DNA of 64,000 nucleotides from Candidatus Kapaibacterium sp. (GCA_028284775.1 JANQRB010000167.1:106-64105); one strand, 5' to 3'; positions 29,242 through 48,974 are shown, counted from the stretch's first letter. The notes: generated by a model from the sequence alone, not told the origin. Made by a program: numbers and translations.

Positions 29242-29315
29242 ACTTAGCTCACCTCCTCTGTGCTGTAATGGCCGTCGGCGCCATATTCCATTGTAGACCG
29301 GACGCTTAATTGCTC

Positions 29316-30608: not shown

Positions 30609-30937
30609 TCCAATTGTTGCTCGTATGCCAAAGCCTGCCGGACTGTTTCTTTATGCTGCGGCAGCTTGTAAATCCGCCGTAAAACTAGAGAATTGGCGCT
30701 AGATAGCCAAAATGAACTGCTGGCAGCCATTCGTCGACAGCGACCTTGCGGACCCCGGAGTAAACGGCTGTCGGGCCGCGGAATTGCAGCAAATTTCACA
30801 GCCCTAGCGGCAGTGGAGCGCAATCCGGCATGTCACGTTGTATTTCAATTTTCGGATCACCTTCGCCGCGAGGCTTTGCCTTTGCGACTCAACCTGTCCC
30901 ATGATGGCGAGCTATATTCGCGCAGCGCGCCTGCCCC

Positions 30938-32230: not shown

Positions 32231-32379
32231 AATTGATTGGACAAAATATTGAAAGGATTTTCCTGAAATTTATAGTATTCAACAAGAATTGCCAGCAGAT
32301 TCTGCAGCAGGAGCATGAGCTTCCGCAGCAGTCGAAGGATTGAGACCCTCTTCGCGATGATGCAAGCGAGGCGCAATGA

Positions 32380-34902
32380 TTAGCGCTCTACGAGTATTTT
32401 GACCACCCGCGAGAGGACCTGATTACTGACCTGAACAAAATAGACAGCAGGTCGAAAACTATACAAGGGCAGGTCAATGGATAGATTTTCTCCTTCAGCT
32501 TCGACATTCATTTGTTCATAAAGCAGCGCGCCCTGCAAAGTGAAGATGCGGCAGGAATACAGATCCCCTTGTTTAGCTGAGATTCTGATCGTGACTTTTC
32601 TATCGAGTGCACTTGCACTTTGGACCGGGTTGGGATAGGCCAGCACGGCGAAATCCTGATTCGCGAATGCCCTGTCCGCAACATTCGTTGGTAGCGCATT
32701 CTGTGCTCGAAGCAGTCGGCTGATGCCTAGCGGGTGAACCGCAAACCAGGCGCTCGAATCGGCGCCGAAGGCGATACTGTTAACCTGACCCGGTATCGGC
32801 AGTAAACCTTCGCCTTGCGGAAAAAAGCTTGCCTGTGAATTGTTTAAACGAACCACGCCGGCTGTGCCTTGCCCGTTGTTAACAGCAAACCATTTGTTGC
32901 CGAATTGATCGATACGCACCGTGCCGACATTCGTGAACTCTTGTAGTACGGGGAGCGATTCGAGTTGCCTGTAATGCCGCCAGCCTGAGTTGCGATAGCG
33001 GCTCAGACCGCCGGGGTAGAGAGTCGCATTGTTGTTTTCGTCGTAGATGGTCTGACTCTTGTATGCCAACCATACACTGCCGTCGCGATCGACGGCCAGT
33101 CCGGCAGGAGCGCGCCGAAACCCGGCGTCGTTGCCGTCCTCAAGATTGTGTACCGTCCACCCACCCTGATCAAACTGGTACAGACCACCGACAAATTCGT
33201 TTGTCAGTGTATCGAGCAATTGAAAGCTTGCGATCCATAGGGCTCCGGAGGGGCCTGCTTCAACAAAGCCGTCAGCCCCGTTGCCGAAGGATACGCCGCC
33301 GGCGTCGCTGATTTCTCTCCATTCGTCGTCATCGTATCGGTGGACCGTCAGGGCCTGGGTGTCCCATGCCTTCAGTCGCTCATTCCAATTTTCCTTTTTT
33401 GCGACAGCCCAGATGCTGCCTGCCGAATCGCGCGCAAGGTGGATAAAAGAATGCAAGTCTGCGGAAGGATCTGCCAATGCGTAGCTGCGCCAGTTGTCGT
33501 CCCTGAATCTGCTGACACCCCCTACGCCGGCGATCCAGACACTCTTATCGCGATCGGCCACCAGGGAGTAAATCGTATCGCTGATTACCCCATTGTCGGC
33601 TGGGAAATACTGCCAGGTGGAATCTGCGCTGCGGTAGCGCCCTAGCGATCCGCCGGACCGAGAGTCGCGATAGGCCACCCAGAGGTCGCCGTTTTTGGCG
33701 GTCATGATCCGGCGAACGCCGTTCCCATTAGGTGCATTGGTATTGCGAATCCGTTCCCAGTCCGTATCTGCAACACGGACGATGCCGCGGTTTGTAGTCA
33801 AGAGGACATTCCCGTCAGCTCCTGCAGCAATACCATTAATGCTGCTGCCGGGCAGCAGGGTATCAGATGTGAAAACCTGCCACGCGGTTTCGTCGCCTGA
33901 ACATGTCAATGTTGTTTCCGTGGCTGCCCAGACACGTCCCTGCCCGTCTACATTCACGGCGCGTATCGAGGGTACGAAAAAGGGGAGGGCGATTTTGGAC
34001 CAGCTATGGCCGTCAAAGCGGCTGAGACCCCAGGTTCCGCCCATCCACACCGCATTGCTGTGATCGACGGCAATCGCGCTGGCGCCGGTCCGCAAAGCAT
34101 CCTCGGATCTGCCCCGTGGATATCGCTTCCATTTCGCATCGGCATAACGGCTGACGCCATGATTGTTGCCGACCCATACCGAGCCGCTGGAATCGAAAGC
34201 AATGGCGTTCAGCGTGGACAGGGAGCTCTTGGCGTCCGGAAGTTCAACGCCCTCGCTGAACAGCTCGAATTCACCTGCATTGCAGCGAATCACGGCGCTC
34301 AGTTGCTTGTCGGCATTCGGCGGCTTGTGATGGCCGATACCCCATACATCGTTTCGACTGTCCACGAGCAGTTTTGATACAGACAGTGTTCCGTCCCAAT
34401 TCTCATTGTCGTATCCCGTCCAATCGCCGTGGTCGAAATATGCGATAATGGCGGTCGCGCCCGGGACACCGCCGGCCGCCATCCAGAGACGTCCGTTCCG
34501 ATCGACTGCCAGACTGTTAACCCGGAGCAGTGGTTTGTCGTCCTTACCGACAATCGCTACGGCGGACCAGCTGCCGCCATCGAAGCGACTGAGTCCTTTG
34601 TCCAGTGTAGCGACCCATACCTCGCCATTCGCCGCAAGTGCAATCGAGCTGATGTGCAGGCTTCGCGGGCCGCTATGAATTCCGAAGACCTCCAGGAAGC
34701 CATCGCTTTTGCGCAGCGCCGTCAGCCCTGCACTGCTGGCGGCCCACAGTACGCTTCTGGAATCCGTCACATGGATAATTTGATCACTGTTGACATAGCT
34801 TCGCCATTCCGGTGATGCCGGCAATTCCGGCGATCCAAAAGCATAATGGCAAACGACAGCGGTAAACAGTAGTTTCCACCTACGCATAGTGCAGTTCCTC
34901 AC
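32380..34902 (-). CDS. T9SS cargo protein with two-component-regulator-type (PorZ-like) beta-propeller repeats
   Basis: Repeated 'IAxDxxGxVWxG...GLSRFDG..W' blades, signal peptide and CTD AYPNPV...AVYFVQV. Confidence 0.75.
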   Translation of the reverse strand: MRNCTMRRWKLLFTAVVCHYAFGSPELPASPEWRSYVNSDQIIHVTDSRSVLWAASSAGLTALRKSDGFLEVFGIHSGPRSLHISSIALAANGEVWVATLDKGLSRFDGGSWSAVAIVGKDDKPLLRVNSLAVDRNGRLWMAAGGVPGATAIIAYFDHGDWTGYDNENWDGTLSVSKLLVDSRNDVWGIGHHKPPNADKQLSAVIRCNAGEFELFSEGVELPDAKSSLSTLNAIAFDSSGSVWVGNNHGVSRYADAKWKRYPRGRSEDALRTGASAIAVDHSNAVWMGGTWGLSRFDGHSWSKIALPFFVPSIRAVNVDGQGRVWAATETTLTCSGDETAWQVFTSDTLLPGSSINGIAAGADGNVLLTTNRGIVRVADTDWERIRNTNAPNGNGVRRIMTAKNGDLWVAYRDSRSGGSLGRYRSADSTWQYFPADNGVISDTIYSLVADRDKSVWIAGVGGVSRFRDDNWRSYALADPSADLHSFIHLARDSAGSIWAVAKKENWNERLKAWDTQALTVHRYDDDEWREISDAGGVSFGNGADGFVEAGPSGALWIASFQLLDTLTNEFVGGLYQFDQGGWTVHNLEDGNDAGFRRAPAGLAVDRDGSVWLAYKSQTIYDENNNATLYPGGLSRYRNSGWRHYRQLESLPVLQEFTNVGTVRIDQFGNKWFAVNNGQGTAGVVRLNNSQASFFPQGEGLLPIPGQVNSIAFGADSSAWFAVHPLGISRLLRAQNALPTNVADRAFANQDFAVLAYPNPVQSASALDRKVTIRISAKQGDLYSCRIFTLQGALLYEQMNVEAEGENLSIDLPLYSFRPAVYFVQVSNQVLSRVVKILVER

Positions 34903-35108
34903 AATGTAAGAGTACCGAGTATCTGACCGGTATTGATCGAGGAGCTTAAAGGCTGGGTGGCCTGCTCTGCAAGCGCCTTGTTCCGCTCGGGAATGTAATG
35001 ATGTGTGTGAATGTAGCTGTATAAATGGGCTAAGGCTTCATTCGCCTTTCAACAGCCCAATATACAAATGCCGACGATACCAGAGCAGGGTGTCTGAGAA
35101 TTTAGTGA

Positions 35109-36128
35109 TTATGTCCTTCGAAAATCTTTCTGCTGCAAGCCCAGAAATTCGAAGGCGGCGTTGGCGAACAGATCTTCTTTAACAGTCGGGCTGAGATCGT
35201 CCATACTTTCGATAAACTTGCCGTGCTGTAAATCGCCCAGGGGGAAGGGGTAGTCGGTGCCGTAGGCGATGCGCCTGGAGCCGATGACGTCGAGTGTATA
35301 GCGCAGGGCATCCTGGTCGTGTGTGATACCGTCCACCCAGAAGGCGCCGGCGTACTCACGCGGGTCGCGAATTTCATTGAGATTAACCAGGTCGGGGCGG
35401 CAATGGTAGCCGTGCGACAGGCGGCCGAGCGTATGCGGCCAGGAACCGCCGCCGTGCGCAAAGAGAACGCGCAGCTTCGGAAAACGATCGAAGACGCCGC
35501 CGAACATCATCGAGCAAATGGCGCGCGATGTTTCGGCGGGCATTCCCACCAGCCAGGGCAGCCAGTATTTACGCATCAGGTCGCGGCCCATCATTTCCCA
35601 GGGATGCACCAGCAGACAGCAGCCCAATGATTCAGCCGCTTCGTAAAAAGGGAAAAACTCCTCTTCATCCAGATTCTTATCCAGAATGTTCGAGCCGATC
35701 TCGAGCCCCGGTAGCCCCAGCTCTTCGACGCAGCGCGTCATCTCCTGGATAGCCAGACGCGTGTCCTGCATCGGTACGCTGCCCAGACCGATAAACCGCT
35801 TGGGATAATCGCGCTGAATGCCGGCCATGTGATCGTTGAGGAACATCGACCAATCGAGAGCGTCTTTGGGCCTGGCCCAGTAGTTAAACAAAACGGGAAC
35901 GGTGCACAGGGTCATGACATCGACATTGAAGGCGTCCATTTCTTCCAGAATCACCGCCGGATCCCAGCAGTTGGCGCGAATCTCGCGAAAGAAAAAGCCA
36001 TCGTCGCGCATCATCTTGGCGCGACCGGGCATAAAGTGATCGAGATAGATAAAGCCGCCGTAGCCATATTTCTGTTTGAGATTCGGCCAGGTTTTCGGGA
36101 GTATATGAGCGTGGATATCGATTTTCAT
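35109..36128 (-). CDS. nbaD: 2-amino-3-carboxymuconate-6-semialdehyde decarboxylase (ACMSD, amidohydrolase_2)
   Basis: IDIHAHILP, VHPWEM, WLVGMPAET, AHGGGS and GTDYPFPLG. Adjacent to nbaC. Confidence 0.9.
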   Translation of the reverse strand: MKIDIHAHILPKTWPNLKQKYGYGGFIYLDHFMPGRAKMMRDDGFFFREIRANCWDPAVILEEMDAFNVDVMTLCTVPVLFNYWARPKDALDWSMFLNDHMAGIQRDYPKRFIGLGSVPMQDTRLAIQEMTRCVEELGLPGLEIGSNILDKNLDEEEFFPFYEAAESLGCCLLVHPWEMMGRDLMRKYWLPWLVGMPAETSRAICSMMFGGVFDRFPKLRVLFAHGGGSWPHTLGRLSHGYHCRPDLVNLNEIRDPREYAGAFWVDGITHDQDALRYTLDVIGSRRIAYGTDYPFPLGDLQHGKFIESMDDLSPTVKEDLFANAAFEFLGLQQKDFRRT

Positions 36129-36283
36129 ACAGCGAGTCGGAATCCTAATGAAACAAGATTCGGCCGGGGGCCGGGCCGGAAGAACGGGCGACAAGAGGCG
36201 AATAAAGCCGCTGCGGAACCAATCGCCGGGCAGAGAATGGTCATTCGCTGCTCAGGCGGGAATGTTCCGGGGCTCCGAAAAGC

Positions 36284-36808
36284 TCAGACAGCGTTGGGCG
36301 GCACAGCCATAACCGATCCGCAGTTCTTACAGGTCCGCAGGTCTTCGCTGCCGTAATAACGGGCGAAGATTTCATTGAACTGACCGATGATGTCGACCAG
36401 GTGAAAATACTCGTCATAGAGTTTGTTACTGCAATTCTCGCAATACCACATCAGCCCGTCTTTCTCGTCGGCTTTGCGGCGGCGTTCCACTACGAGCCCG
36501 ACCGAGTTGGCTTCGCGCTGCGGCGAATGCGGCACCCTGGCGGGCAGCAGGAAAATTTCACCCTCGCTGATGGGAATGTCTTTGATGACACCGTCGTCAT
36601 TAACGCGCAGATTCATATTGCCTTCGAGCTGATAGAAAAACTCCTCGCCTTCATTGTAATGAAAATCCTTGCGTGAGTTTGGGCCGCCGACCACCATTAT
36701 GATGAATTCGTGATCTTTGTACACCACCTGATTGCCGACCGGCGGCTTGAGCAGATGCCGGTGTTCATCGATCCACCGTTTGAAATTGATGGGGGATTGG
36801 AGCGCCAT
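36284..36808 (-). CDS. nbaC: 3-hydroxyanthranilate 3,4-dioxygenase
   Basis: LKPPVGN, VGGPNSRKDFH, EEFFYQ, PHSPQR and rubredoxin-like CENC...CKNC. Confidence 0.95.
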   Translation of the reverse strand: MALQSPINFKRWIDEHRHLLKPPVGNQVVYKDHEFIIMVVGGPNSRKDFHYNEGEEFFYQLEGNMNLRVNDDGVIKDIPISEGEIFLLPARVPHSPQREANSVGLVVERRRKADEKDGLMWYCENCSNKLYDEYFHLVDIIGQFNEIFARYYGSEDLRTCKNCGSVMAVPPNAV

Positions 36809-36912
36809 CGGGAATCCCTCCGCGGAATTATTGATCGTATTGTTTTGCTTTCGCGTATTTTTGAGCTATGCGAACGAATTTACAATTTTTTTGACTAGCG
36901 TGGACGGGCACT

Positions 36913-37704
36913 ATGAAGGAGATGGATTTTCGCGCTAAGAATGCCCTGGTGTGCGGCAGTACGCAGGGCATCGGCCGGGCGATCGCGGAGGAGCTGGCAC
37001 GGCGCGGCGCGGCGATTACCCTGGCGGCGCGCAACGAAGAAGTTCTGCAGCAAGTACGGCAGGGATTGGCGCGGGACGATGGTCAGCAGCATGAGATAAT
37101 TGTCGCCGACTTTAACAACAGCAAGGGGCTGCGCAGCCGACTCGAAGAATATTTTAACGACGGCCGCCGCGTGCACATCCTGATCAACAACAGCGGCGGG
37201 CCTCCGGGCGGACCGATTGCGGCGGCGCGTGAAGAAGAATTCGAGCTGGCCTTTGGGCGGCATCTGCTTTGCAACCATGTTTTAGCGCAGGCTTGCCTGC
37301 CGGGAATGAGAGCCGCGGGCTACGGCCGGATCATTAACATTATCTCCACCTCTGTTAAACAGCCTATTCCGGGGTTGGGAGTTTCGAATACCATCCGCGG
37401 CGCCGTGGCCAATTGGGCGAAAACACTGGCGGCTGAAGTTGCGGCCGAGGGGATAACGGTCAACAACGTTCTGCCCGGCGCAACCGCGACCGGTCGTCTG
37501 GAGTCGATCCTGCAGAAGAAAGCGGCCAAAACCGGCGCGACGCTGAATGACGTGGAAGAAGCGGCCCGCAACGAAATCCCCGCCGGTCGATTCGGCGAAC
37601 CCTGGGAGGTCGCTATTGCGGCAGTTTTCCTGGCCTCGCCGCTGGCCGCCTATATTAACGGTGTCAATCTTCCGGTGGACGGCGGTCGGCTGGCCTGCCT
37701 CTAA
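36913..37704 (+). CDS. SDR-family oxidoreductase with SxxxR in place of YxxxK
   Basis: CGSTQGIG, NNSGG, VNNVLPG and VDGG motifs. Confidence 0.85.
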   Translation: MKEMDFRAKNALVCGSTQGIGRAIAEELARRGAAITLAARNEEVLQQVRQGLARDDGQQHEIIVADFNNSKGLRSRLEEYFNDGRRVHILINNSGGPPGGPIAAAREEEFELAFGRHLLCNHVLAQACLPGMRAAGYGRIINIISTSVKQPIPGLGVSNTIRGAVANWAKTLAAEVAAEGITVNNVLPGATATGRLESILQKKAAKTGATLNDVEEAARNEIPAGRFGEPWEVAIAAVFLASPLAAYINGVNLPVDGGRLACL

Positions 37705-37905
37705 ACAGTGACGGTTCACGGCAGTGCGTCGCGGCGCTCTCCCGACCGAGGCGATTGAGATGAATTGCAGGCAGGCGCGCCGCGATGTTGCGTTCGGTTT
37801 GCACTGACGAAGTAGCGATCCCATCGCCGACGGGAGCCGCTTGTGTTCGGCAAGGGGAATACTTCAATAGAATGTAGCATTATCAGCACAAGGCAATTTT
37901 ACCCG

Positions 37906-39348
37906 ATGGAAAAACTGAAGAATTACATTGGCGGCAAGATGCTCGCGCCGCGCTCTCGCAGCTATTTCAATAACTACGAGCCGGCGATCGGCAGGCCGTA
38001 TTCCCTTGTGCCCGATTCCGATGCGCGCGACGTGCAGGCGGCGGTCGAGGCGGCGCAGTCGGCCTTTCCAGCCTGGTCCGCGATGCCGGCGGAAGAACGC
38101 GGCGCTATCATGATGCGAATCGCCGCTATTGTCCGTGAGCGTCTGGAGCCCCTGGCCCGTGCCGAGTCTCGCGACAACGGCAAGCCGCTCTGGCTGGCCC
38201 GCAGCGTGGACATCCCGCGTGCTGCGACAAACTTTCACTTTTTCGGGACCGCGATTCAGCATTTCGCTTCGGAAGCGCATCCGATGGCCGACGGCAGCGT
38301 TAACTACACGCTGCGCAAGCCGCTTGGCGTCGTCGGTTGTATCTCGCCCTGGAACCTGCCATTGTACCTTTTTACCTGGAAAGTCGCGCCCGCGCTCGCA
38401 ACAGGCAACTGCGTGGTGGCCAAACCTTCGGAGATAACACCGAAGACGGCCTACCTCTTTGCCGACATTTGCCGCAAGGCGGGACTGCCGCCGGGCGTAC
38501 TTAACATCGTGCAGGGCAGCGGCGCCGGGGCCGGCGCCGCGATTGTCGAGCATCCTGAAATTGAGGCGATATCTTTTACGGGCGGTACCGCCACCGGACA
38601 GCAGATTGCGCGGACGGCCGCGCCGATGTTTAAGAAATTGTCGCTTGAATTGGGCGGTAAAAATCCAACGATCGTTTTTGCTGATTGCGACTATGAAAAA
38701 ACGATCGAGGAAACCGTCCGCGCGTCATTTGCGAACCAGGGTGAAATCTGTCTCTGCGGCTCGCGTATCTATGTCGAACGAGCTCTCTATGACCGCTATC
38801 GCGATGACTTTGTCAGACGTGTTAAAAAATTGAAGCCTGGCGACCCCGCCGCCAAAAACAGCCGGCAGGGCGCGCTGGTCTCGGAAGCACACTTAAACAA
38901 GGTGCTCTCTTATGTCGACCTGGCGCGTGACGAAGGCGGCCGGATTCTGACCGGCGGTAAACGCGCGCGCCTGCGCGGACGCTGTAAGGACGGTTGGTTT
39001 ATGCAGCCGACGGTTATTGAAGGACTTGACTATTCCTGCCGCACGAACCAGGAGGAAATATTCGGTCCGGTGGTGACGCTGCAGCCTTTCGACAGCGAGG
39101 AAGAAGCGCTGCGATATGCTAACGGCACCGTTTACGGTCTGGCGGCGAGCGTCTGGACGAATGACATCAAGCGTGCCCACAGGGTGGCCGACCGTCTGCA
39201 GAGCGGCATTGTCTGGCTGAATTGCTGGATGCTGCGCGACCTGCGGACACCCTTCGGCGGCATGAAAGATTCAGGGGTCGGCCGCGAAGGCGGGCTGGAA
39301 GCATTGCGATTCTTTACCGAGCCCAAGAACGTTTGTGTCAAGCTTTGA
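37906..39348 (+). CDS. 2-aminomuconate/2-hydroxymuconate semialdehyde dehydrogenase (ALDH8A1-like)
   Basis: ISPWNLPLYLFTWK, FTGG, LELGGKN, NQGEICLCGSR, EEIFGPV and RDLRTPFGG. Fits kynurenine-pathway context. Confidence 0.85.
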   Translation: MEKLKNYIGGKMLAPRSRSYFNNYEPAIGRPYSLVPDSDARDVQAAVEAAQSAFPAWSAMPAEERGAIMMRIAAIVRERLEPLARAESRDNGKPLWLARSVDIPRAATNFHFFGTAIQHFASEAHPMADGSVNYTLRKPLGVVGCISPWNLPLYLFTWKVAPALATGNCVVAKPSEITPKTAYLFADICRKAGLPPGVLNIVQGSGAGAGAAIVEHPEIEAISFTGGTATGQQIARTAAPMFKKLSLELGGKNPTIVFADCDYEKTIEETVRASFANQGEICLCGSRIYVERALYDRYRDDFVRRVKKLKPGDPAAKNSRQGALVSEAHLNKVLSYVDLARDEGGRILTGGKRARLRGRCKDGWFMQPTVIEGLDYSCRTNQEEIFGPVVTLQPFDSEEEALRYANGTVYGLAASVWTNDIKRAHRVADRLQSGIVWLNCWMLRDLRTPFGGMKDSGVGREGGLEALRFFTEPKNVCVKL

Positions 39349-39355
39349 GGGCGCC

Positions 39356-40495
39356 GTGCTGCTGCGAAAAGTCGTCCGTCTGCTGAAAATCTTGTCAATC
39401 AATGCCCTGGTCCTGCTGATTCTGTTGGCGGGACTCGAGCTGACGCTGCGGCTGGTCGATCCGCAAAACCTGCCCACGCCCGCGATCGGTTCGCACGAAT
39501 GGCGGGATGATTACAAACGGCCGACGCCGGCGTATGATGAGACCATCAGTTTTCCCGAAAGGAAGGTGCGCTGGACGATCAATGCACAAGGGCTGCGCGA
39601 TCACGAATTCGACAGCATCAAAGCGCCGGGGCTGGTGCGTATAATCGGCTTTGGCGATTCTTACACTTTCGGTTATACCGTCGAGCAGGAACAGACCTTT
39701 CTGCATCATCTCGAATCACTAATGAATGCCGAGCGGGCGCGTCGCTGTCCGGATTCGGCGCGTATGTTTCAAACCCTCAACATGGGCGTGGTGGATTGCG
39801 GCACGATTAACCAGTTTCGTTATGCCCGCGGGCGGGGAATGGCATATCAGCCGGATCTGCTGCTGCTGGCCGTATACCCCGGCAATGATGTCTATGACGT
39901 CCTTGCCGAGCACAAAAAGCCCGGCGCTCCTGACCCGGGCGCCGCCGCGGCCGGAACCAGAGCCAATCCGCTGCTGTCCTTTTTTCGCTACCATTCACAT
40001 CTCTATGCCTTTGTCAGCGAACGTCTGCACACCCTCTTGCTGCGCTTCGGTCTGCGCCAGGTTGACACATCGAGTATCGAGGTGCTGCGCAAAACCGAGA
40101 GCGCCAAGGTTCGGCAGGGTTGGAACCTGCTCGAGAGCCACATCATGCGCTTTGATTCGCTGGCGGCTGCGCATGATGCCGAACTTCTGGTGCTGCTGCT
40201 GCCGACACGGCATCAGGTACGGCAATCCGAGTGGGACTTCATTCGCGCAACTTATAAGCTCAGCGCAGATGACTTTCAGATCGACAGGGCGCAGCGACGG
40301 CTGAGTGACTTTTGTGCCGCAGCGAATATTGCCTGCCTCGATGCCCTGCCCGCCTTACGCCGCGACAGCCTCGCCGCCTTCAATCCCAACCGTGACCGCC
40401 ATCTCAGTCCCCGCGGACATTGGCTGGTGGCCGATACGCTCTTTCGATTCCTGCGACCTCGCCTGTGCGGGAGCGCGTGGACTCCGTCACCTTAG
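39356..40495 (+). CDS. Membrane-anchored SGNH/GDSL-family (AlgJ/AlgX/DltD-like) protein
   Basis: N-terminal TM helix, INAQGLRD, block I GDSYTFG, GND and block V DRHLSPRGH. GTG start taken after a GAGG site. Confidence 0.75.
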   Translation: MLLRKVVRLLKILSINALVLLILLAGLELTLRLVDPQNLPTPAIGSHEWRDDYKRPTPAYDETISFPERKVRWTINAQGLRDHEFDSIKAPGLVRIIGFGDSYTFGYTVEQEQTFLHHLESLMNAERARRCPDSARMFQTLNMGVVDCGTINQFRYARGRGMAYQPDLLLLAVYPGNDVYDVLAEHKKPGAPDPGAAAAGTRANPLLSFFRYHSHLYAFVSERLHTLLLRFGLRQVDTSSIEVLRKTESAKVRQGWNLLESHIMRFDSLAAAHDAELLVLLLPTRHQVRQSEWDFIRATYKLSADDFQIDRAQRRLSDFCAAANIACLDALPALRRDSLAAFNPNRDRHLSPRGHWLVADTLFRFLRPRLCGSAWTPSP

Positions 40496-40625
40496 CTTGC
40501 TCTCCGCTGGTGCGGGCGTCGATTAGTGCATTGTCGCATCGGCGGGATTAGCCATATTGTAGCCTGCGCGCCGTAGTGTGCGGCTGAGAAGCAATACGAT
40601 TGACAGGACAAGGCCGAGCGATTCA

Positions 40626-41012
40626 ATGAAGTTAACAGGTCGTGTTTCAAAGGCGGAAGCCAGGGATACAGGCATGGCACTTACGCTGCTGCTCCTGTTG
40701 CTGAACTGGCTGTTTGATTGGTCGGGCCTTTTGTTGCCGGCCTTGTTGACGCTGCTTGTCGCGATGACGGCGCCCGGGCTGTTCCGTCCTGCGGCCATCG
40801 TCTGGCTGGGACTTGCGCGCCTTCTGTCGGCCGTCAGCAGTCGGCTGATTCTGACTGTTGTATACAGCCTGGTCATTACACCGATCGGCCTGTTGCGGCG
40901 CGCGTTAGGCGCCGACCCCTTGCGCGTACGACAATGGAAGCAAGGGCGCGATTCCGTCTTTACGACTCGCTCGGGCGAGGGGAGTGCGAGCGAAATCGAA
41001 CAACCATTCTGA
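40626..41012 (+). CDS. SxtJ-family membrane protein
   Basis: Hydrophobic segments, W..LA..L..V.SRLIL.VVY..VITPIGLLRR..G.DPL and C-terminal EQPF. Confidence 0.8.
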   Translation: MKLTGRVSKAEARDTGMALTLLLLLLNWLFDWSGLLLPALLTLLVAMTAPGLFRPAAIVWLGLARLLSAVSSRLILTVVYSLVITPIGLLRRALGADPLRVRQWKQGRDSVFTTRSGEGSASEIEQPF

Positions 41013-41035
41013 GGCGCTAACCAGGGAGCGGAAGC

Positions 41036-41185
41036 ATGGAATTTTGGAAGGACATCTGGGGATTTCTGACCCAGCGCAAAAAGTACTGGCTGCTGCCCGC
41101 GATACTGGTATTGCTCGTGTTCGGCGCGCTACTGGTGTTTAGCTCCGGCTCAGCCATTGCGCCCTTTATTTACACCTTGTTCTGA
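41036..41185 (+). CDS. 49-aa single-pass membrane peptide (SxtK / DUF5989 family); not in ORF track
   Basis: Translated by hand: MEFWKDIWGFLTQRKKYWLLPAILVLLVFGALLVFSSGSAIAPFIYTLF*. GGAG site upstream; lies between sxtJ-like and carbamoyltransferase genes. Confidence 0.88.
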   Translation: MEFWKDIWGFLTQRKKYWLLPAILVLLVFGALLVFSSGSAIAPFIYTLF

Positions 41186-41190
41186 GTACT

Positions 41191-43065
41191 ATGGCCGAGG
41201 CATTTCTGGGCATTTCCGCCTACTACCACGACAGCGCCGCCGCACTTGTTCTGGACGGCAGGATTGTTGCCGCTGCCCAGGAAGAACGCTTCAGCCGCAA
41301 AAAACACGACGCGTCGTTTCCGGCTCAGGCGGCGCGATACGTGTTGGCGGAGGCCGGACTTGACCTACAGGATTTGCGAGCGATCGCATTCTACGATAAG
41401 CCTTTCCTTAAGTTCGAACGCCTGTTGGAGAGCTACCATGCCTTCGCGCCCCGGGGCTTGCGCAGCTTTTTGCAGTCAATGCCGGTCTGGGTGAAAGACA
41501 AGCTCTTCATGCGCCGGATGCTTAAACAAGAATTGACGAAGCTCGCAGCCGCGCCGCCGGAGAAATGGCCGCGCCTGCTCTTTCCCGAACATCACCTGTC
41601 GCACGCCGCCAGTGCCTTTTATCCCTCGCCCTTCAGTGAAGCAGCTATCCTGACAGTTGATGGTGTCGGCGAGTGGGCCACGACCACGATTGCCGCCGGA
41701 GCGGGCAACAAGGTCAGCATCCTGCGCGATCTTAGCTTCCCGCATTCGGTCGGGCTGTTGTATTCGGCCTTTACCTATTACTGCGGCTTTAAGGTTAACA
41801 GCGGTGAATACAAGCTTATGGGCCTTGCGCCCTATGGCAATAGCGATGGAGAGCGTGTTAAACGCTTTTACCGCCTGATTTTCGACCAGCTTGTCGATTT
41901 GCGCGATGATGGCTCGCTGCTGCTGAACATGGAGTATTTCGACTTTGTTACGGGATTGCGCATGTGTAAAGACGCGCGCTGGGAATCGCTCTTCGGCATC
42001 CCGCGCCGCGCCGCCGAAAGCGAATTGACGCCGGCCTATATGGATATGGCCCTGGCGATTCAACAGGCTGTAGAGGAAATAGTGCTGCGTATGGCCGGCA
42101 GCGCGGTGGCAGTGACGGGAATGCGGCGGCTGGTGATGGCGGGCGGCGTTGCGCTTAACTGTGTCGCCAACGGCAAGCTGCTGCGCTCGGGAATTGTCGA
42201 TGAGCTCTGGATTCAGCCGGCGGCGGGCGATGCCGGTGGCGCCCTGGGGGCGGCTTACGCGGCCGCGCATCTTTGGGCGGACGAAGATCGCTCCATCCCT
42301 GCGGAGGCCGCGGACGCAATGCAGGGGTCCTACCTCGGACCGTCGTTCGACGCAAATGATGTTGCGCGTCTCTGCCGCCGCTATGCCGCGTCCTGCCGTC
42401 ATTTTGAAGATTTCGACGCATTAACGGCATCGGTCGCGCAGGAGCTGGCGGGCGGCCACATTGTCGGCTGGTTCCAGGGGCGGATGGAGTGGGGACCGCG
42501 TGCCCTCGGCAATCGCAGCATCCTGGGCGACGCCCGGCGGCCGGAGATGCAGAAACGTCTGAACCTGAAAATAAAATACCGCGAGGGTTTTCGTCCCTTT
42601 GCCCCGGCGGTCCTTGCCGAGGACAGCGGGGACTTTTTCGATCTGGCGCAGCCCTCGCCCTATATGTTACTGGTGGCGCCTGTACGGGAATCGCGTCGTC
42701 GTCCCCTGCCGGAAGACTATCCCGAGATGGAAATGTATGCAAGGCTTTATCACCAGCGCTCGGATATCCCGGCCGTGACGCATATCGATTATTCGGCCCG
42801 CATCCAGACCGTCCATGCCGAAACGAATCCGCGCTTTCACGCCCTGCTGACGGCCTTCCGCGAACACAGCGGCTACGGTCTGCTGGTCAACACCAGTTTT
42901 AACGTACGCGGAGAACCCATTGTCTGCACGCCGGAAGACGCTTATCGTTGTTTTATGACGACCGAAATGGATGTGCTGGTGATCGGCAACGCCCTGTTCT
43001 ATAAGAACGAGCAGCCTGCATGGCAGGCGGACAAGCGCCAGAATCAGACCTTTGAGGCGGATTGA
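41191..43065 (+). CDS. O-carbamoyltransferase (NodU/CmcH/TobZ; SxtI-like)
   Basis: HDSAAAL, QEERFSRKKHD, EHHLSHAAS, GEYKLMGLAPYG, GGVALNC, GPRALGNRSIL, FRPFAP and NTSFN. Confidence 0.93.
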   Translation: MAEAFLGISAYYHDSAAALVLDGRIVAAAQEERFSRKKHDASFPAQAARYVLAEAGLDLQDLRAIAFYDKPFLKFERLLESYHAFAPRGLRSFLQSMPVWVKDKLFMRRMLKQELTKLAAAPPEKWPRLLFPEHHLSHAASAFYPSPFSEAAILTVDGVGEWATTTIAAGAGNKVSILRDLSFPHSVGLLYSAFTYYCGFKVNSGEYKLMGLAPYGNSDGERVKRFYRLIFDQLVDLRDDGSLLLNMEYFDFVTGLRMCKDARWESLFGIPRRAAESELTPAYMDMALAIQQAVEEIVLRMAGSAVAVTGMRRLVMAGGVALNCVANGKLLRSGIVDELWIQPAAGDAGGALGAAYAAAHLWADEDRSIPAEAADAMQGSYLGPSFDANDVARLCRRYAASCRHFEDFDALTASVAQELAGGHIVGWFQGRMEWGPRALGNRSILGDARRPEMQKRLNLKIKYREGFRPFAPAVLAEDSGDFFDLAQPSPYMLLVAPVRESRRRPLPEDYPEMEMYARLYHQRSDIPAVTHIDYSARIQTVHAETNPRFHALLTAFREHSGYGLLVNTSFNVRGEPIVCTPEDAYRCFMTTEMDVLVIGNALFYKNEQPAWQADKRQNQTFEAD

Positions 43066-43126
43066 GGACTGACCTATCTTCCAAAGCGAATTGATTCGTG
43101 ACGACCTAAGGCTTACTCAGTAACAG

Positions 43127-43390
43127 CTACACTTTCTGCTCGCCGTTCACTAATTCGACCGGTAAGATGTCGTAGCCGGACATCGTCGTCTGTTTCTCCT
43201 GCGAGAAGAATTCATCCAGCCATTGATCGACGGCGCGGCGCTGCACCAGCAGTTTGTGTCCGAGCCAGATGCCTTTTTTGATATCGCCTGTTTTCATGGC
43301 ATTGCGAATCTTCTTAATCGCAATGCGACCGTTGACGTAGTTGTAGACGTCTTCATCGGTCATGGGTACGTGGGGACTACGGTATTCCAT
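43127..43390 (-). CDS. Small excisionase/MerR-like (HTH_17) DNA-binding protein
   Basis: MTDEDVYNYV...IKKIRNAMKTGDI...LGHKLLVQRRAVDQWL fits the Xis/HTH_17 pattern. Confidence 0.5.
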   Translation of the reverse strand: MEYRSPHVPMTDEDVYNYVNGRIAIKKIRNAMKTGDIKKGIWLGHKLLVQRRAVDQWLDEFFSQEKQTTMSGYDILPVELVNGEQKV

Positions 43391-43662
43391 TAAGCCGTTA
43401 CTTAGCACTGTGAGTTATTCTTTCCGAGTTTGAAATACGGCCGCGTATTCCGGACAGTCTCATTGAATACACAGACGGATCATGGTAATGACGCAAAATG
43501 AGTGATATTCCTCGATCGGCCGTCCATTTTTTCCCGGCGGCTAAGGGAATTGAAGAAGATGCAGTGTTAATCTGACCCCTTGAATGAGTACTTAACAAGT
43601 TCGTGTGAGAAAAAGGAAGCAAGGGAGTGGAACGTAGCCGCGTTTCCGATCGGCTGGCCCGC

Positions 43663-44706
43663 TCAGCGAAAGCGAAATGTAATCGGAACCATTACCCAAC
43701 ACTTAAAGTAACGACCTTCTTCCCGGGCCGGCTCGAATCTGATTTGCTCCAGGGCCTTAAGGGCAGCCTCGCTAAACAGAGGTACGAAATTCTCATCGAA
43801 GTCTTCTGCTTCGGTGATGTGTTCGATTTGATTGCCCTGTTCGTCGATTAATATGCGAATCCTGATCTGACCTTCCTGGTTTGCGCGAACGCCGGCTTCG
43901 GGATAAACAACGAAGCTCTGCAACAGCGGCAGATCGAGGTAGGGTTCGCAGATGTCGTACAGCTCGAGTTCCACCTGTATCGAGTCATGGGGAATTTTGG
44001 CTTTGCCGCTCGAATCGACGGCGATAAGTTCGCCGCTGTACTCGCTGCCGCCTGCGCTTACATATCTACCCTCCGGTGTACGCCGATCGTTGATATAGCG
44101 GCCTTCATAGCGATCGCCGTTGGCCCAGTAATACACGCCTTTGCCGTGGCGCCGGTTGTTGCGAATCTGACCCTCATAACGATCTCCGCCGGGAAAGAAC
44201 ATCGTACCCCGGCCATCCAGGTATTGGGAGTCGTGCGCCTCGCCTTCATAGCGTTTGCCGTTCGGCCAGCGGATGGTGACGGCCGAGTTTAGCTCGCCGT
44301 TGGCGAATTTCGCCTGATACTCTTTGCCCCAGTAATACTTGCGATGAAAATTTCCATGCAACAGTCCATGACGATACTCCGCCGTAAAAGAGTCGCCATC
44401 CTTGTGGGTATACTGCGTCTCGCAGGCTCCATGCAGCCGTCCCCCAGCAAAATTTCCGTGCACAACAGCTTGCAACGCAGTGTCTAGGTACCAGCGAACA
44501 ATTCCCTTCCCATGGGCAAAGCCATTCACGCAGTCTCCCTCATAGCTGATCGAATCACCTGGTGGGTCAGCAGGTAATTCAACATGGCAGTTGGAACGCG
44601 CATCGCTGATCCACTCGATGCCCCGGGTGCAGCTCGCCAGGATAGCAAACGCAAGGAGCGCCGGGAAAATCACTACCTTTCGTCGATTAATGCTGTGCAT
44701 ACTCAT
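43663..44706 (-). CDS. Lipoprotein with MORN repeats and C-terminal TonB_C domain
   Basis: Lipobox LASC, YEGDCVNGFAHGKG, repeated GDRYEG...HGKG, and YPEAG...QEGQI.I...IDEQG...FEPA...VPITF. Confidence 0.78.
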   Translation of the reverse strand: MSMHSINRRKVVIFPALLAFAILASCTRGIEWISDARSNCHVELPADPPGDSISYEGDCVNGFAHGKGIVRWYLDTALQAVVHGNFAGGRLHGACETQYTHKDGDSFTAEYRHGLLHGNFHRKYYWGKEYQAKFANGELNSAVTIRWPNGKRYEGEAHDSQYLDGRGTMFFPGGDRYEGQIRNNRRHGKGVYYWANGDRYEGRYINDRRTPEGRYVSAGGSEYSGELIAVDSSGKAKIPHDSIQVELELYDICEPYLDLPLLQSFVVYPEAGVRANQEGQIRIRILIDEQGNQIEHITEAEDFDENFVPLFSEAALKALEQIRFEPAREEGRYFKCWVMVPITFRFR

Positions 44707-45167: not shown

Positions 45168-48100
45168 ATGATTTGCCGCAGTCATCATATCGTGGTTCGA
45201 CTTGCGCTGGGCGCTGTGCTCGGTTTGTTCCTGTCCGTGCCGATGATAAATGCGCAACAGGAATTTCTCCAACTTATCGATGTCAACTCCGCTGATTTTC
45301 CCACGGTAACGGCAAATATTTTCGCCTTTGATGAAAGCGGTCAATCGCTCCAAGGGCTGGTTGCCGAAGACATTCTGTTGAGCGACAATGGCGCCGACAT
45401 AGCCGGATTGCGTCTGGAATGCCCCGGCGACGTGGAAGCTCAAGCGCTTTCATCCGTTCTGGCAATCGATGCCTCGCTCTCGATGGATGGCGCGCGCTGG
45501 CAGATCGCCCGCCATGGCGCCGAACACTGGATTGACCGGGCGTTGGATGGCAGCTCGGATTGTGCTTTGAGTATTTTTGATCGACAATCCTATGTTTTGC
45601 AGGACTTCAGCAGTGATCAGGGCAGGCTTACTGCAGCGCTTGACCGGCATACGACTGGCAGCGGCACCGATTTCAACGCAGCCCTGCTGGATGGTCCGGC
45701 GGCAGCCTTGCGCCTTGCCGGCCGCGCCGGGCACCGGCCGATTGTGATTCTGCTGACAGACGGCGCCGGCCCCCTGGACCTGACCCGTGTACGCGACTTC
45801 GCTCTGTCAAACGGACTCACAATTTATTGTCTGGGCCTTTTTTCAGTCCTGCAGAAGGATCTGAAGACCCTGGCAATGGAGACGGGCGGCTACTGCTTCG
45901 ATCGCATTGCCAGCCTGGAAGAGATTCGCCGCTATTACAGTCTTGTGCTTTATCTGGCGCGCGGCGGAAAGCCCTGCCGCCTCTCCTGGCAGGCTGTCGG
46001 CGACTGCGATACCGAACGGGAGGTCGGGCTCGAGGTCGTCAACAGTGAATTGTCGCTGACATTTCAGTATCAACCTTCACCGGCTAATCGGGCGCGTGCC
46101 GAAATCGCGCCTTCATCGATTGAATTCGGCGCTGTGATCCCGGATGGTCGCCGGGTGGAACGCGAGGTCATTATTACGGCCCGGGATGCAGCGCTGCGTC
46201 TCGACGGTTTTCAGAGCAGTGACGCCCGCTTCCACATCGAGCGTCCGGATCCACCCGCAGGAAATATTCTTCAGCCCAATGAGAGCGAGCACGTCGTGCT
46301 TGTCTACACGCCGCCGGATTCGGCCTCGGTCGTGGCGCAGATCTCACTGCAATCCGATTCCTGCGCCGACACCTTGTTCCATGTCGCAGGAGGGTATCAA
46401 AACGCCTCCTTCGGTCCGCGGCAACTACGGCTGCTCAGCCCGGCCGCCGGTGATACGCTGCTGGCGGGGCAGGAGCTGGCCATTACCTGGGACGGCGTTC
46501 TGCCGGACGAAAAGATACAGATCGATTATCGCGCCGGGCCAGCCGCTGATTGGGAGTTAGTGACTGACGCAGCAAGTAACCTGCGATATGACTGGCAGGC
46601 GCCGATCAGCGCGGGCCCAACGACCGAGCTGCGGCTGCGGTATTTTGCCGAAGGCAATGTCGATGCATCGCACGCTGAAATCCATCCCTTTGCGCAGCGA
46701 TCCGTCACAGGGCAGGCGCGGGGCGTCGACTTCATTCCGGGTGACAGTCTGGCTGTCATTACCGGCGGGACATCAGATGCTTTGAACCCGGTTCAGATTT
46801 GGAACTACCGCAGTGACAGCATCATCAGGAGCTTCGACCTGAGCGGGGCAGGTCGCCTGACGGCACAGGATGTCAGTACAAGCGGGCACTATCTCGCCTT
46901 GGGCGGGATCGACGGCGTCGTCTATCTCTTCAGGCTGAGCGAAGGCGAGCTGATCCGCCGTTTCACCATCGGCAACACACCGGTGACCTATGTGGCGATC
47001 AGCGCTGATGAACGCTACCTCGCTGCCAGTTATGCCAATGCCGGCATCGGTGCCGTTATCTGGGATTTACAGACGCTGGAGCAGGTGCATGATATCACCG
47101 ATCACATCGGAACGATTCATACGATTCGCTTCAGCGCCGACGTGACATCATTTCTTACGACCGGCGCAGACCGTTCGACGCGTATCTGGTCATTGGAATC
47201 CGCCGTGACGTTTCGGACTCTCAATTCGCATAGCGACGAGGTGCTCTGCGCTGCCTTCAGTCCGGATGGCTCGCTCGTTGCGACCGGCAGTCGTGACGGT
47301 AGTCTCGAATTATGGCAGGTTGCGCCCTGGCGACGCATTCGCAAACTCAGCCTCAATGATTTGCCCGTCCTCGATCTTGACTTCAGCCCTGATGGTAAGA
47401 TGCTGCTGGCGGCTTATCAGTTCGGCAGCGCCGAAGTATGGCGTCTGAGCTCTTTCGAGTCGGCCCGCACGCTGGTGGGGCATCGGAATGATGTGAATTT
47501 CGGCCGTTTCCATCCCGACGGCATCCTGGCGGCCAGCAGCGACAAAGACGGTCGTGTCATCGTATGGCGTCTGGATGTGGCCCGTCGCGAACTGTCGCAA
47601 ACTTCACGCGTGCTGAGGCATTTGCAACCGGCGCTGACGCTTGTGGAACGAGTAGCGATGGGAGATGTCATTCTCAATCGGCAGCGTGATTCGATTGTCA
47701 ATTCCTGCCTGTGCAATCGCTCCGACGCTCCGGTGCTGGTGCGCTCGCTGACGCTGCAACAGGATGAAGAAGGAGAATTCGAGCTGCCGACTCGGGCGGT
47801 ACCGCTTAGCCTGCGGCCCGGTATCTGCCATCCGTTGGAAATTCGTTTTCGGCCCTCTCGGACGGGCGAGCGCAGGGCGCTGCTGGTTGCGGAGACTGCT
47901 AACGAAGTACTGCACTGCAGGCTTATCGGCAACGGCTTGCCTGCCGGCATGAGCGGCGTCTCTATACTCGACTTCGGAATGGTCGCGCCGGGCGAGCGGA
48001 AAGACAGCAGCATTAGTTTGCAGGTTGAAAACAACAGCGGAGAGCCCGTGCTGCTTTCCGGTCTTCGCTTACGGGGTCCGGACAGCGAGCAATTTTCCAT

Positions 48101-48974
48101 CGCTGCCGGCAATGAGGTACGCATACTGGCCGACGGCGACACGCACGAATTGACACTCAGTTTCGCGCCGGAAGAGGTCGGTCGCACGAGCGGCCGCCTG
48201 GAAGTAGTGCAGGACTTCGGCGGAGGGCGCGCCAAGATCGCGGCGGAGGTGCTGCTGCACGGCGAAGGCGCCTGTGACCTGGCGCTGCCACCGCAGGGGG
48301 CTTTTACGATTGCGCTGCCCGAAGTGGAGGTGCACGAACAGGATCGGCTGCTGCTGAATTTGACCGTCACTCCCGCCGCCGGCATGCAATCGGCCTTTGA
48401 CCAGGGCCTCCGAGATTTTGAAGCGCGTATCCGATTTAACAGGACGATTCTCGTACCAGTCGGCGCCACCCCTGCCGGCAGTGTGGACGGCGATGATCGT
48501 GTGATCGATATCAGGGGCTCCATAACGGATGTCGATCCCGTCGCCATCCGCCTGGAATTTATTGCGGTCTTCGGCAATGCCGAATCGACAGAGCTGCAGA
48601 TCGAATCATTCGCCTTTACTGGTTGTCCTGTCTCTAAGCTGCTGCGTCACGGCAAAGTGACGATCAGCGATATCTGCCGCGCCGGCGGCTTGCGCCTCTT
48701 CAATAGCAGCGGCAGCCTGGCCCTGTTGCGGAGCCAACCCAATCCGGCCAGGGACGCCACCATCATACAGTTCGCGTTGCGTGAAAATGGTCTCACGCAG
48801 CTGACGCTTTACGACGCTTTAGGCCGCGAAGTGCGGCGGCTGGTGGATGCCATTCTGAGCAAAGGCCCCTACGAGCTGCGCCTGGCAACACAGGATCTTC
48901 CGGCTGGTCGCTACCTATATGTCTTGCGCACGCCGACTGCCGTGATTCACGAACATCTGGTGGTGATGCAATGA
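45168..48974 (+). CDS. T9SS cargo protein: VWA + choice-of-anchor-D + WD40 propeller + cohesin-like domain + CTD
   Basis: MIDAS DASLS...T...TDG, WD40 repeats (FSPDGSLVATGSRDG), Ig-like units and CTD SQPNPA...LPAGRYLY. Confidence 0.82.
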   Translation: MICRSHHIVVRLALGAVLGLFLSVPMINAQQEFLQLIDVNSADFPTVTANIFAFDESGQSLQGLVAEDILLSDNGADIAGLRLECPGDVEAQALSSVLAIDASLSMDGARWQIARHGAEHWIDRALDGSSDCALSIFDRQSYVLQDFSSDQGRLTAALDRHTTGSGTDFNAALLDGPAAALRLAGRAGHRPIVILLTDGAGPLDLTRVRDFALSNGLTIYCLGLFSVLQKDLKTLAMETGGYCFDRIASLEEIRRYYSLVLYLARGGKPCRLSWQAVGDCDTEREVGLEVVNSELSLTFQYQPSPANRARAEIAPSSIEFGAVIPDGRRVEREVIITARDAALRLDGFQSSDARFHIERPDPPAGNILQPNESEHVVLVYTPPDSASVVAQISLQSDSCADTLFHVAGGYQNASFGPRQLRLLSPAAGDTLLAGQELAITWDGVLPDEKIQIDYRAGPAADWELVTDAASNLRYDWQAPISAGPTTELRLRYFAEGNVDASHAEIHPFAQRSVTGQARGVDFIPGDSLAVITGGTSDALNPVQIWNYRSDSIIRSFDLSGAGRLTAQDVSTSGHYLALGGIDGVVYLFRLSEGELIRRFTIGNTPVTYVAISADERYLAASYANAGIGAVIWDLQTLEQVHDITDHIGTIHTIRFSADVTSFLTTGADRSTRIWSLESAVTFRTLNSHSDEVLCAAFSPDGSLVATGSRDGSLELWQVAPWRRIRKLSLNDLPVLDLDFSPDGKMLLAAYQFGSAEVWRLSSFESARTLVGHRNDVNFGRFHPDGILAASSDKDGRVIVWRLDVARRELSQTSRVLRHLQPALTLVERVAMGDVILNRQRDSIVNSCLCNRSDAPVLVRSLTLQQDEEGEFELPTRAVPLSLRPGICHPLEIRFRPSRTGERRALLVAETANEVLHCRLIGNGLPAGMSGVSILDFGMVAPGERKDSSISLQVENNSGEPVLLSGLRLRGPDSEQFSIAAGNEVRILADGDTHELTLSFAPEEVGRTSGRLEVVQDFGGGRAKIAAEVLLHGEGACDLALPPQGAFTIALPEVEVHEQDRLLLNLTVTPAAGMQSAFDQGLRDFEARIRFNRTILVPVGATPAGSVDGDDRVIDIRGSITDVDPVAIRLEFIAVFGNAESTELQIESFAFTGCPVSKLLRHGKVTISDICRAGGLRLFNSSGSLALLRSQPNPARDATIIQFALRENGLTQLTLYDALGREVRRLVDAILSKGPYELRLATQDLPAGRYLYVLRTPTAVIHEHLVVMQ

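Follow-up and report, generated by a model that had tools for sequence, protein, structure and literature searches.

We analyzed a 64,000-nucleotide stretch of DNA from Candidatus Kapaibacterium sp. (GCA_028284775.1, JANQRB010000167.1:106-64105), referred to here at its full length as the window, and focused on a four-gene cassette that may pass a carbamoyl group across the membrane. The cassette occupies 39335-43065 on the plus strand, where four open reading frames (ORFs) are co-oriented, as a prediction made earlier from the sequence alone (the original prediction) had claimed. Its first gene encodes a membrane-anchored SGNH/GDSL-fold protein (39356..40495, with an alternative GTG start at 39335), recognized from its ORF, a family alignment and a profile. 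Next come a small polytopic membrane protein of the SxtJ family (40626..41012, in an ORF open from 40578), assigned by Pfam SxtJ, and a 49-residue DUF5989/SxtK micropeptide (41036..41185), assigned by Pfam DUF5989. The last gene (41191..43065) encodes a 624-residue, SxtI-like cytoplasmic O-carbamoyltransferase of the NodU/CmcH/TobZ family, assigned by Pfam Carbam_trans_N and Carbam_trans_C. The peptide gene lies 23 nucleotides after SxtJ and 5 nucleotides before the carbamoyltransferase gene.

The peptide matches the whole DUF5989 model (PF19451; profile positions 1-49 of 49) at 86.9 bits against a cut-off of 27, and a Pfam scan of it at E ≤ 0.1 returned only this family and a weak Get5_C match. 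It is built from an amphipathic N-terminus, RKK at residues 14-16, one hydrophobic helix, an uncharged linker rich in glycine, serine and alanine, and a terminal PFIYTLF that runs directly into the stop codon. A 49-residue peptide with RKK ahead of a single transmembrane helix and this same ending had been predicted, and the family match confirms it. The final FIYTLF is encoded at 41165..41182, with the Tyr46 codon at 41171-41173 and the stop at 41183-41185. It is of the FxYxxF type, which, according to the available text of PMC12148441, serves as acyl-shuttle motif in DltX and at the C-termini of bacterial MBOATs, including that of NgPatA, which ends in FIYANF. There, the PatA tyrosine is auto-acetylated and acetyl-FIYANF is the donor for the SGNH enzyme PatB; the same portion of that source describes the other MBOAT/SGNH pathways as operating without a DltX-like microprotein. 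The DltX and MBOAT motif cited in the original prediction stands in print in this source, and four MBOATs that we examined carry it.

The peptide belongs to a large and highly uniform family whose tail is near-invariant. A word-index search with the peptide found 252 proteins among 261 candidates, and the 120 homologues listed are 69-100% identical to it and all end in PFIY..F. Searching with the DUF5989 profile gave 5157 cluster representatives at E ≤ 0.001, of which 1662 reach E ≤ 1e-10. Across many phyla, homologues are 53-84% identical, and the source names of one of them, P0086, place a DUF5989/SxtK gene in Synechocystis. A pattern scan of one genome per species located at least 572 peptide loci, whose record labels include Acidobacteriota, delta-proteobacterial groups, cyanobacteria, Nitrospira, Pelagibacteraceae, Bacteroidota, Saccharibacteria and others. 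The invariant residues are D6, R14, K16, W18, P21, G30, G38, A40, P43, F44, I45, Y46 and F49. The tail is followed immediately by a stop in all 80 loci kept from the pattern scan, a set biased for the tail because the pattern included APFIY. Of 100 copies that the Pfam model detected in samples from two phyla, 99 end in F.Y..F and a stop, so that the tail is intact in 179 of 180 genomic copies overall (80 pattern-found, 100 model-found). The tyrosine, whose conservation the original prediction had proposed to check, is near-invariant, as is the whole FxYxxF motif. The lone exception (L182, 3045-3164) is a low-scoring orphan DUF5989-like frame ending in FICTLV, in which the tyrosine and the final phenylalanine are lost; this copy seems to have decayed. 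Fusions and divergent copies retain APFIY..F even as their N-termini drift.

The 7.9-Mb genome that contains the window offers a measure of how rare this ending is. Only 5 of 61,199 mechanical ORFs of at least 40 residues end in F.Y..F, which indicates that the peptide tail is more than chance. The five are the peptide, two MBOATs (FLYFNF and FIYFQF) and two short, non-hydrophobic ORFs; the tail follows a hydrophobic helix only in the peptide and the two MBOATs. The latter are encoded on other contigs (C21:3207-4736 and C67:40419-41885; L112 and L113), and no MBOAT lies in the window. The description of the system as MBOAT-free is thus correct for the locus but not for the genome, and an MBOAT adjoins the peptide at 2 of 81 loci, L020 and L065. 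At L020, the MBOAT stands beside a whole cassette. At L065 (2537-6138, labelled Nitrospirae), genes for an AlgJ-like protein (FDAHW), an SGNH protein and an MBOAT are followed 16 nucleotides later by DUF5989; neither SxtJ nor a carbamoyltransferase lies within 6 kb, and a carbamoyltransferase is encoded elsewhere in that genome. Both of these MBOATs end in FIYFDF, with a Gly/Ser-rich linker after the terminal helix, much like the peptide, which can thus be found among classical acyl-shuttle genes, as at L065. In the window's own genome, each MBOAT is followed by an ORF of 355-372 residues with no Pfam family at E ≤ 0.01, presumably an AlgJ/SGNH-type partner.

Several features bear on which side of the membrane the tail occupies. 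In 121 of 121 sequences, the net charge over the first 18 residues of the peptide lies between +1 and +4, and no charged residue occurs among the last 14. Natural fusions add to this picture. P0272 (532 residues; one source labels it Caldilineaceae) consists of an N-terminal anchor, an SGNH domain (LTLGDSY ... DDGHW), a transmembrane helix and a full DUF5989 sequence ending in GPFIYTLF. Its AlphaFold model has a mean predicted local distance difference test (pLDDT) score of 84, with helices at the expected places. Should the SGNH domain lie outside, as the signal-anchor suggests, the tail of P0272 would share that side unless the membrane is crossed by the amphipathic stretch that precedes the final helix. 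SxtJ is fused to DUF5989 in P0202 and P0241 and in in-frame ORFs at L175 and L176, with an Arg-rich linker that joins the final helix of SxtJ to that of the peptide. Other long frames that end in the peptide, from high-GC genomes, were discarded as mostly read-through in another frame, only L175 and L176 being in-frame SxtJ-peptide fusions; apparent SGNH-SxtJ fusions at L046, L057 and L016 were rejected as artefacts. The charge bias, the Arg-rich linker, the charge of the SxtJ tail and the P0272 fusion all fit an N-in/C-out peptide, a topology read from sequence that would place the FxYxxF tail on the SGNH side, as had been predicted.

The carbamoyltransferase is the most readily classified member of the cassette. 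Carbam_trans_N matches residues 6-355 at 311.6 bits and Carbam_trans_C scores 244.9 bits. Since the catalytic domain begins at residue 6, there is no room for a signal peptide, in agreement with the earlier claim that the enzyme lacks one. The protein is not a NodU equivalog, scoring 137 bits against a cut-off of 1000 for NCBIfam NF041651. TobZ, of the same family, makes activated carbamoyl from carbamoyl phosphate and ATP, and TobZ, NodU and CmcH each act alone in the cytoplasm on soluble substrates.

The SxtJ protein of the window is 128 residues long from its likely start at 40626, or 144 residues from 40578. Pfam SxtJ (PF19588) matches it marginally, at 26.7 bits against a cut-off of 24.4 and over residues 54-116 only, and an Atlas search with it returned SxtJ clusters exclusively (scores 0.94-0.95). 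Across 55 members of the family, the C-terminal residue is aromatic in 54 (F 31, Y 17, W 6), the penultimate residue is mostly proline or glutamine, and the last 45 residues carry a mean net charge of +4. Such an end, aromatic and borne by a positively charged tail, might be where the carbamoyltransferase docks.

The SGNH ORF encodes 386 residues from the GTG at 39335 and 379 from 39356, the start given in the original prediction and also that of the database protein P0271 (379 residues). Its N-terminus is a hydrophobic anchor preceded by Arg and Lys residues, and the catalytic domain is predicted to be extracytoplasmic. The motif blocks are IIGFGDSYTFG and NPNRDRHLSPRGH, and the predicted catalytic residues, in P0271 numbering, are S102 of the GDS motif and His349 of D-R-H. 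The original prediction of intact SGNH motifs holds for GDSY and DRH themselves, but the protein itself falls below a Pfam GDSL cut-off (17.8 bits against 32.9 for Lipase_GDSL_2), so its identity is taken from its relatives and their profile. In the family alignment, the nucleophilic serine is kept in 36 of 37 rows, the histidine in all 37 and an aspartate two residues ahead of it in 21. By our own count, 24 of 44 relatives exceed a Pfam GDSL cut-off, two exceed that of ALGX and one that of DltD. Against solved structures, the profile matches generic esterases best (E 6.6e-18), followed by AlgJ (5.9e-11), CgnD (1.1e-10), AlgX (2.6e-10) and PatB1 (6.8e-6). The SGNH domain of the fusion protein (model m7329facc745c) matches CgnD (PDB 8a2n) with Z 21.3 and a root-mean-square deviation of 3.7 over 247 residues, generic SGNH esterases with Z 15-17 and the transferase PatB with Z 14.7. 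The gene is single-copy in its own 7.9-Mb genome, where the profile finds just two matches at E ≤ 1e-5. Some of the relatives that adjoin the cassette elsewhere (L042, L045, L055, L077 and L052) are 724-751 residues long and fused to tetratricopeptide repeats.

We followed the association of these families across 101 loci, comprising 80 from the pattern scan, the window and 20 from the window's phylum (one per family; two for long frames), each examined over a stretch of 12-14 kb. Hidden Markov models were built from the neighbouring genes, using 55 of 61 cluster members of 110-170 residues for SxtJ and members of 300-470 residues for the SGNH family, with fragments and forms fused to tetratricopeptide repeats excluded. 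SxtJ is present at 89 of the 101 loci and a carbamoyltransferase at 86. An SGNH-family gene accompanies 45 of the 86 loci that have both SxtJ and the carbamoyltransferase, within 2.5 kb at 43 and within 500 bp at 30; 18 of these last 30 are on the same strand. Additionally, in five other genomes the strong full-length SGNH matches sit at peptide loci. Among the 20 phylum loci, the peptide stands alone at 8, and each of five such genomes tested encodes SxtJ and the carbamoyltransferase elsewhere. Glycan genes surround many loci, though not the window's own; among them are glycosyltransferases, sugar transferases, aminotransferases and export genes of the Wzx-like and Wzm/Wzt-like kinds.

The same association is seen at the level of whole genomes. 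We scanned 401 genomes from the phylum of the window; the peptide scores above its cut-off in 147 and SxtJ occurs in 117, the two together in 116 and SxtJ without the peptide in one; the 31 genomes with the peptide only may be misses by the weak Pfam SxtJ model. The SGNH profile (E ≤ 1e-20) matches 65 of these genomes, 62 of which have the peptide. SGNH co-occurrence, one of the checks suggested at the outset, is thus borne out both by position (45/86 loci) and by genome (62/65). A sample of 301 genomes from a second phylum has the peptide in 122, a count that includes one unpublished genome (G561). Sampled genomes from the order of the window's organism are 2-4 Mb in size, compared with 7.9 Mb for its own, and the peptide was seen in none of them.

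Individual loci vary around this pattern. In Trichodesmium erythraeum IMS101 (L188, L047; approximately 2546000-2565000), seven SGNH paralogues adjoin SxtJ-SxtK, interspersed with proteins of 451, 470 and 611 residues that have no Pfam match, and the carbamoyltransferase is approximately 22 kb away. Conserved neighbours of 442-611 residues in cyanobacterial SGNH arrays matched no Pfam family; the single one of this kind at L185 is a CNNM/CorC transporter. At L006 (4457-5824), a DDE transposase occupies the usual place of the carbamoyltransferase beside DUF5989 and SxtJ, and the genome encodes a carbamoyltransferase on another contig.

We propose that the cassette is a relay in which a DltX-like tyrosine shuttle passes a carbamoyl group from the carbamoyltransferase and SxtJ to an outward-facing SGNH transferase, an explanation toward which the evidence leans, if only by a little. 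By analogy with TobZ, the soluble carbamoyltransferase would use carbamoyl phosphate and ATP to produce activated carbamoyl in the cytoplasm, while docked on the cytoplasmic parts of SxtJ and the DUF5989 peptide. The uncharged, flexible tail of the N-in/C-out peptide (SSGSAIAPFIYTLF) might then re-enter a groove lined by SxtJ and meet the enzyme at the inner face, which is speculation, and Tyr46 would take the carbamoyl group there. The loaded tail would swing to the active-site serine of the membrane-anchored SGNH enzyme. That enzyme would in turn transfer the carbamoyl onto a hydroxyl of an extracytoplasmic acceptor, an envelope glycan being the likeliest. We infer the carbamoyl-tyrosine and carbamoyl-serine intermediates, the membrane crossing, the SGNH activity as a transferase and not an esterase, and the acceptor. 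Taken together, the observations on which the original prediction was based are confirmed and its relay interpretation is supported in part, with the chemistry still at the stage of a proposal. Those of its refuting conditions that sequence data could address (conservation of the tyrosine, the side of the tail and SGNH co-occurrence) all turned out favourably for it.

A number of results weigh against this relay. One is a gap in its path, at the loading step: the enzyme is cytoplasmic whereas the tyrosine is predicted to lie outside, and no catalyst or route for the crossing is visible. SxtJ, which in our proposal would line that route, has an invariant P86 and a nearly invariant W60 but no conserved polar residues. 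Its sequence profile found no relative in the PDB, and a fold search with a model of the SxtJ-peptide fusion gave single-helix matches only (best Z 5.2), a result that does not show the SxtJ fold to be new. Esterases outrank transferases among the SGNH matches by both fold and profile, so transferase activity is not favoured over esterase activity. The SGNH gene was not found in 12-14 kb at 41 of the 86 loci with SxtJ and the carbamoyltransferase, and 85 of the 147 peptide-bearing genomes have no SGNH match at E ≤ 1e-20; because related genomes are not independent, Fisher values overstate the co-occurrence that is seen. The SGNH-DUF5989 fusion is a single protein cluster with two member sequences, and a search for longer forms of the peptide yielded three proteins with N-terminal extensions and no second SGNH fusion. 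Model confidence for the tail is low, at approximately 51 pLDDT in P0272 and below 50 in the SxtJ-peptide fusion, and neither model has the tail docked. Finally, among 150 cluster representatives listed, 23 have residues past the motif and 5 have a broken motif; these 28 have outlier lengths and look like gene-calling or read-through errors. A complex prediction for SxtJ, the peptide and the SGNH protein scored 0.02 against a mark of 0.32, without controls, and counts neither way.

In a different arrangement, SxtJ and the peptide would tether the carbamoyltransferase to the inner face of the membrane, a lipid-linked glycan or small molecule would be carbamoylated before export, and the SGNH protein would act apart from them as an esterase in the periplasm. 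That enzyme would trim carbamoyl or acetyl groups, as has been proposed for SxtL, and the tail would serve in assembly or regulation. The lack of a catalytic residue in SxtJ, the loci and genomes without an SGNH match (41/86 and 85/147) and the fact that the closest solved fold (Z 21.3) belongs to a hydrolase, CgnD, all suit this arrangement. So does precedent: in the parts of the saxitoxin literature available to us, SxtI, SxtJ and SxtK act jointly on a small molecule and SxtL is a possible decarbamoylase, and the available text of PMC12148441 places an SGNH esterase, Ape1, in known MBOAT operons. A tether nevertheless leaves unexplained why FxYxxF is invariant at the extreme C-terminus, on the far side from the enzyme, why the tail is the best-kept part of divergent copies and why the peptide is fused behind an SGNH domain in P0272. 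We regard it as unlikely overall, though as the chief competitor of the relay.

Two further explanations fare worse. The peptide could be a DltX-type partner of MBOATs that carries an acyl group such as acetyl; it would then be linked to the carbamoyltransferase only because both serve the same polymer. The gene order at L065, where the peptide follows an MBOAT by 16 nucleotides, SGNH and AlgJ-like genes lie upstream and the surrounding 6 kb lack both SxtJ and a carbamoyltransferase, is what such a partnership would look like, and the MBOAT beside the cassette at L020 and the two MBOATs in the window's own genome point the same way. An MBOAT is adjacent at only 2 of 81 loci, however, whereas the peptide tracks SxtJ (116/117 genomes) and the carbamoyltransferase (86/101 loci), and even the L065 genome encodes a carbamoyltransferase elsewhere. 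Because all four MBOATs examined have an FxYxxF tail of their own, they need no microprotein, and we consider this role improbable. That the 49-residue frame is simply a chance opening between SxtJ and the carbamoyltransferase gene might be suspected from its small size and from its having been missed by an ORF track, but the idea is refuted by conservation (86.9 bits to DUF5989, 5157 cluster representatives and 53-84% identity across many phyla) and by the occurrence of the peptide as an in-frame domain of larger proteins; we give it essentially no credence.

The remainder of the window provides the setting of the cassette. Directly upstream is a kynurenine/tryptophan-degradation block (27865-39348) that comprises a flavin adenine dinucleotide (FAD) monooxygenase (27865-29241), a kynureninase-like gene (29316-30608), an aminotransferase (30938-32230), an ACMSD-like amidohydrolase (35109-36194), a 3-hydroxyanthranilate dioxygenase (36284-36808), a short-chain dehydrogenase/reductase (36913-37704) and, as its last gene, an aldehyde dehydrogenase (37843-39348). 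The stop codon of the aldehyde dehydrogenase overlaps the upstream GTG of the SGNH ORF. We rejected it as a member of the cassette; it belongs to the kynurenine block and is not a recurrent neighbour across loci. The genes downstream of the cassette are unrelated, and a promoter and terminator scan of 37500-43700 gave no signal exceeding that of shuffles. The window also encodes two large secreted beta-propeller proteins with Por_Secre_tail (type IX secretion) sorting domains and a 1268-residue VWA and WD40 protein (these three at 3427-4983, 24421-27585 and 45168-48974), and the Por_Secre_tail proteins fit a Bacteroidota-like organism.

What is at stake in the relay is a new way of decorating the cell surface. 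Two routes are known by which a cytoplasmic acyl group reaches polymers outside, MBOAT-SGNH (including Dlt) and AT3-SGNH, and both proceed via a tyrosine intermediate according to the available text of PMC12148441. The cassette combines a tyrosine tail and an SGNH enzyme without either membrane acyltransferase, having instead a soluble carbamoyltransferase and a small protein, SxtJ, with no recognised fold. It may represent a third class of trans-membrane group transfer, in which an ATP-dependent, SxtJ-docked carbamoyltransferase charges a free FxYxxF micropeptide that then serves SGNH transferases, a tentative classification whose prospects we put slightly short of even. If the relay is real, it would bring both a new donor module and a new chemistry, that of carbamoyl, to envelope modification. 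Since roughly one in three of the genomes sampled from two phyla has the peptide, envelope polymers bearing O-carbamoyl groups would then be the product of a widespread, unrecognised surface modification, occurring in very abundant bacteria. DUF5989, SxtJ and the SxtL-like GDSL proteins would acquire a concrete function, and so, after 18 years without one, would the SxtJ, SxtK and SxtL proteins encoded in toxin clusters and in other clusters of cyanobacteria. In known systems, how well cells resist lysozyme, antimicrobial peptides and phages depends in part on acylation of the envelope, and a carbamoyl mark could matter for ecology for this reason.

The closest relative of the cassette as a gene neighbourhood is found in saxitoxin clusters, which in the available text of PMC2679770 and PMC2684587 contain sxtI (a carbamoyltransferase), sxtJ (405 bp), sxtK (165 bp) and sxtL (a GDSL lipase). 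The consulted portions of reviews and of a 2026 preprint describe SxtJ and SxtK as still uncharacterised and hypothesised to act with SxtI, and SxtL as a guessed decarbamoylase; in the suomilide cluster, sxtJ, sxtK and sxtL occur together (available text of PMC10157211). The original prediction was right to link the cassette to saxitoxin genes and to call SxtJ and SxtK functionally unassigned, but it overlooked the fourth member, sxtL. Because sxtL encodes a GDSL lipase, the set in the window is the known sxtI-J-K-L neighbourhood and not a new assembly. The four families and their neighbourhood are the same in both, and cyanobacterial loci suggest that SxtL belongs to this SGNH subfamily. The differences lie in gene content and order: saxitoxin clusters have toxin core genes, whereas a Pfam scan of the 43 ORFs in the window found none, as had been claimed, and the order SGNH-SxtJ-SxtK-carbamoyltransferase in the window becomes carbamoyltransferase-SxtJ-SxtK-SGNH-SGNH at L021.

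In mechanism, the nearest parallel is DltX-DltB-DltD. DltX is a single-pass protein of approximately 50 residues with an FXYXXF motif at its outside C-terminus, and its tyrosine carries the acyl group to the serine of a membrane-anchored SGNH protein (available text of PMC12148441); the window peptide has the same size, motif, predicted topology and SGNH neighbour. Unlike the Dlt system, the window locus has neither an MBOAT nor a carrier protein, its donor would be a soluble carbamoyltransferase with SxtJ, the proposed group is carbamoyl and not D-alanyl, and the cassette occurs mostly in diderm phyla. Nor is the peptide a detectable member of the DltX sequence family, since Pfam, which presumably includes a DltX model, yields only DUF5989 and the weak Get5_C match. 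PatA/PatB and AlgI/AlgJ/AlgX share with the cassette an FXYXXF tail after a terminal transmembrane helix and an SGNH partner. In PatA and AlgI, however, the tail is part of the MBOAT and the donor is acyl-CoA, whereas here the tail is a free peptide, or fused to SGNH or SxtJ, and the donor is presumably carbamoyl-AMP. In the AT3-SGNH enzymes OatA and OafA, the acyl group moves from a tyrosine at the outer face to the SGNH serine and on to the polymer, as the accessible part of PMC12148441 describes; the cassette contains no AT3 domain, and an AT3 neighbour cluster is seen in few loci.

Two comparisons concern single members of the cassette. The window carbamoyltransferase has the Carbam_trans_N and Carbam_trans_C domains of TobZ, NodU and CmcH, but unlike these it belongs to a subgroup associated with SxtJ and DUF5989. 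Among solved structures, the SGNH domain is matched best by CgnD, the leader peptidase of the crocagin pathway, and its cluster also has a carbamoyltransferase, CgnI (available text of PMC10070186). It differs from the window protein in being a soluble, slow peptide hydrolase from the pathway of a RiPP (a peptide made on ribosomes and modified after translation) and not membrane-anchored, and that portion of the source reports no SxtJ or DUF5989. CgnD acts beside a C-terminal Ile-Tyr-Trp core, a parallel that may be a coincidence or a deeper link. In the literature searched, we found no paper that names DUF5989 and none that joins SxtJ or SxtK with the DltX/MBOAT acyl shuttle. The gene families and their neighbourhood are known, and what appears to be new is the mechanistic link between them and the acyl shuttle.

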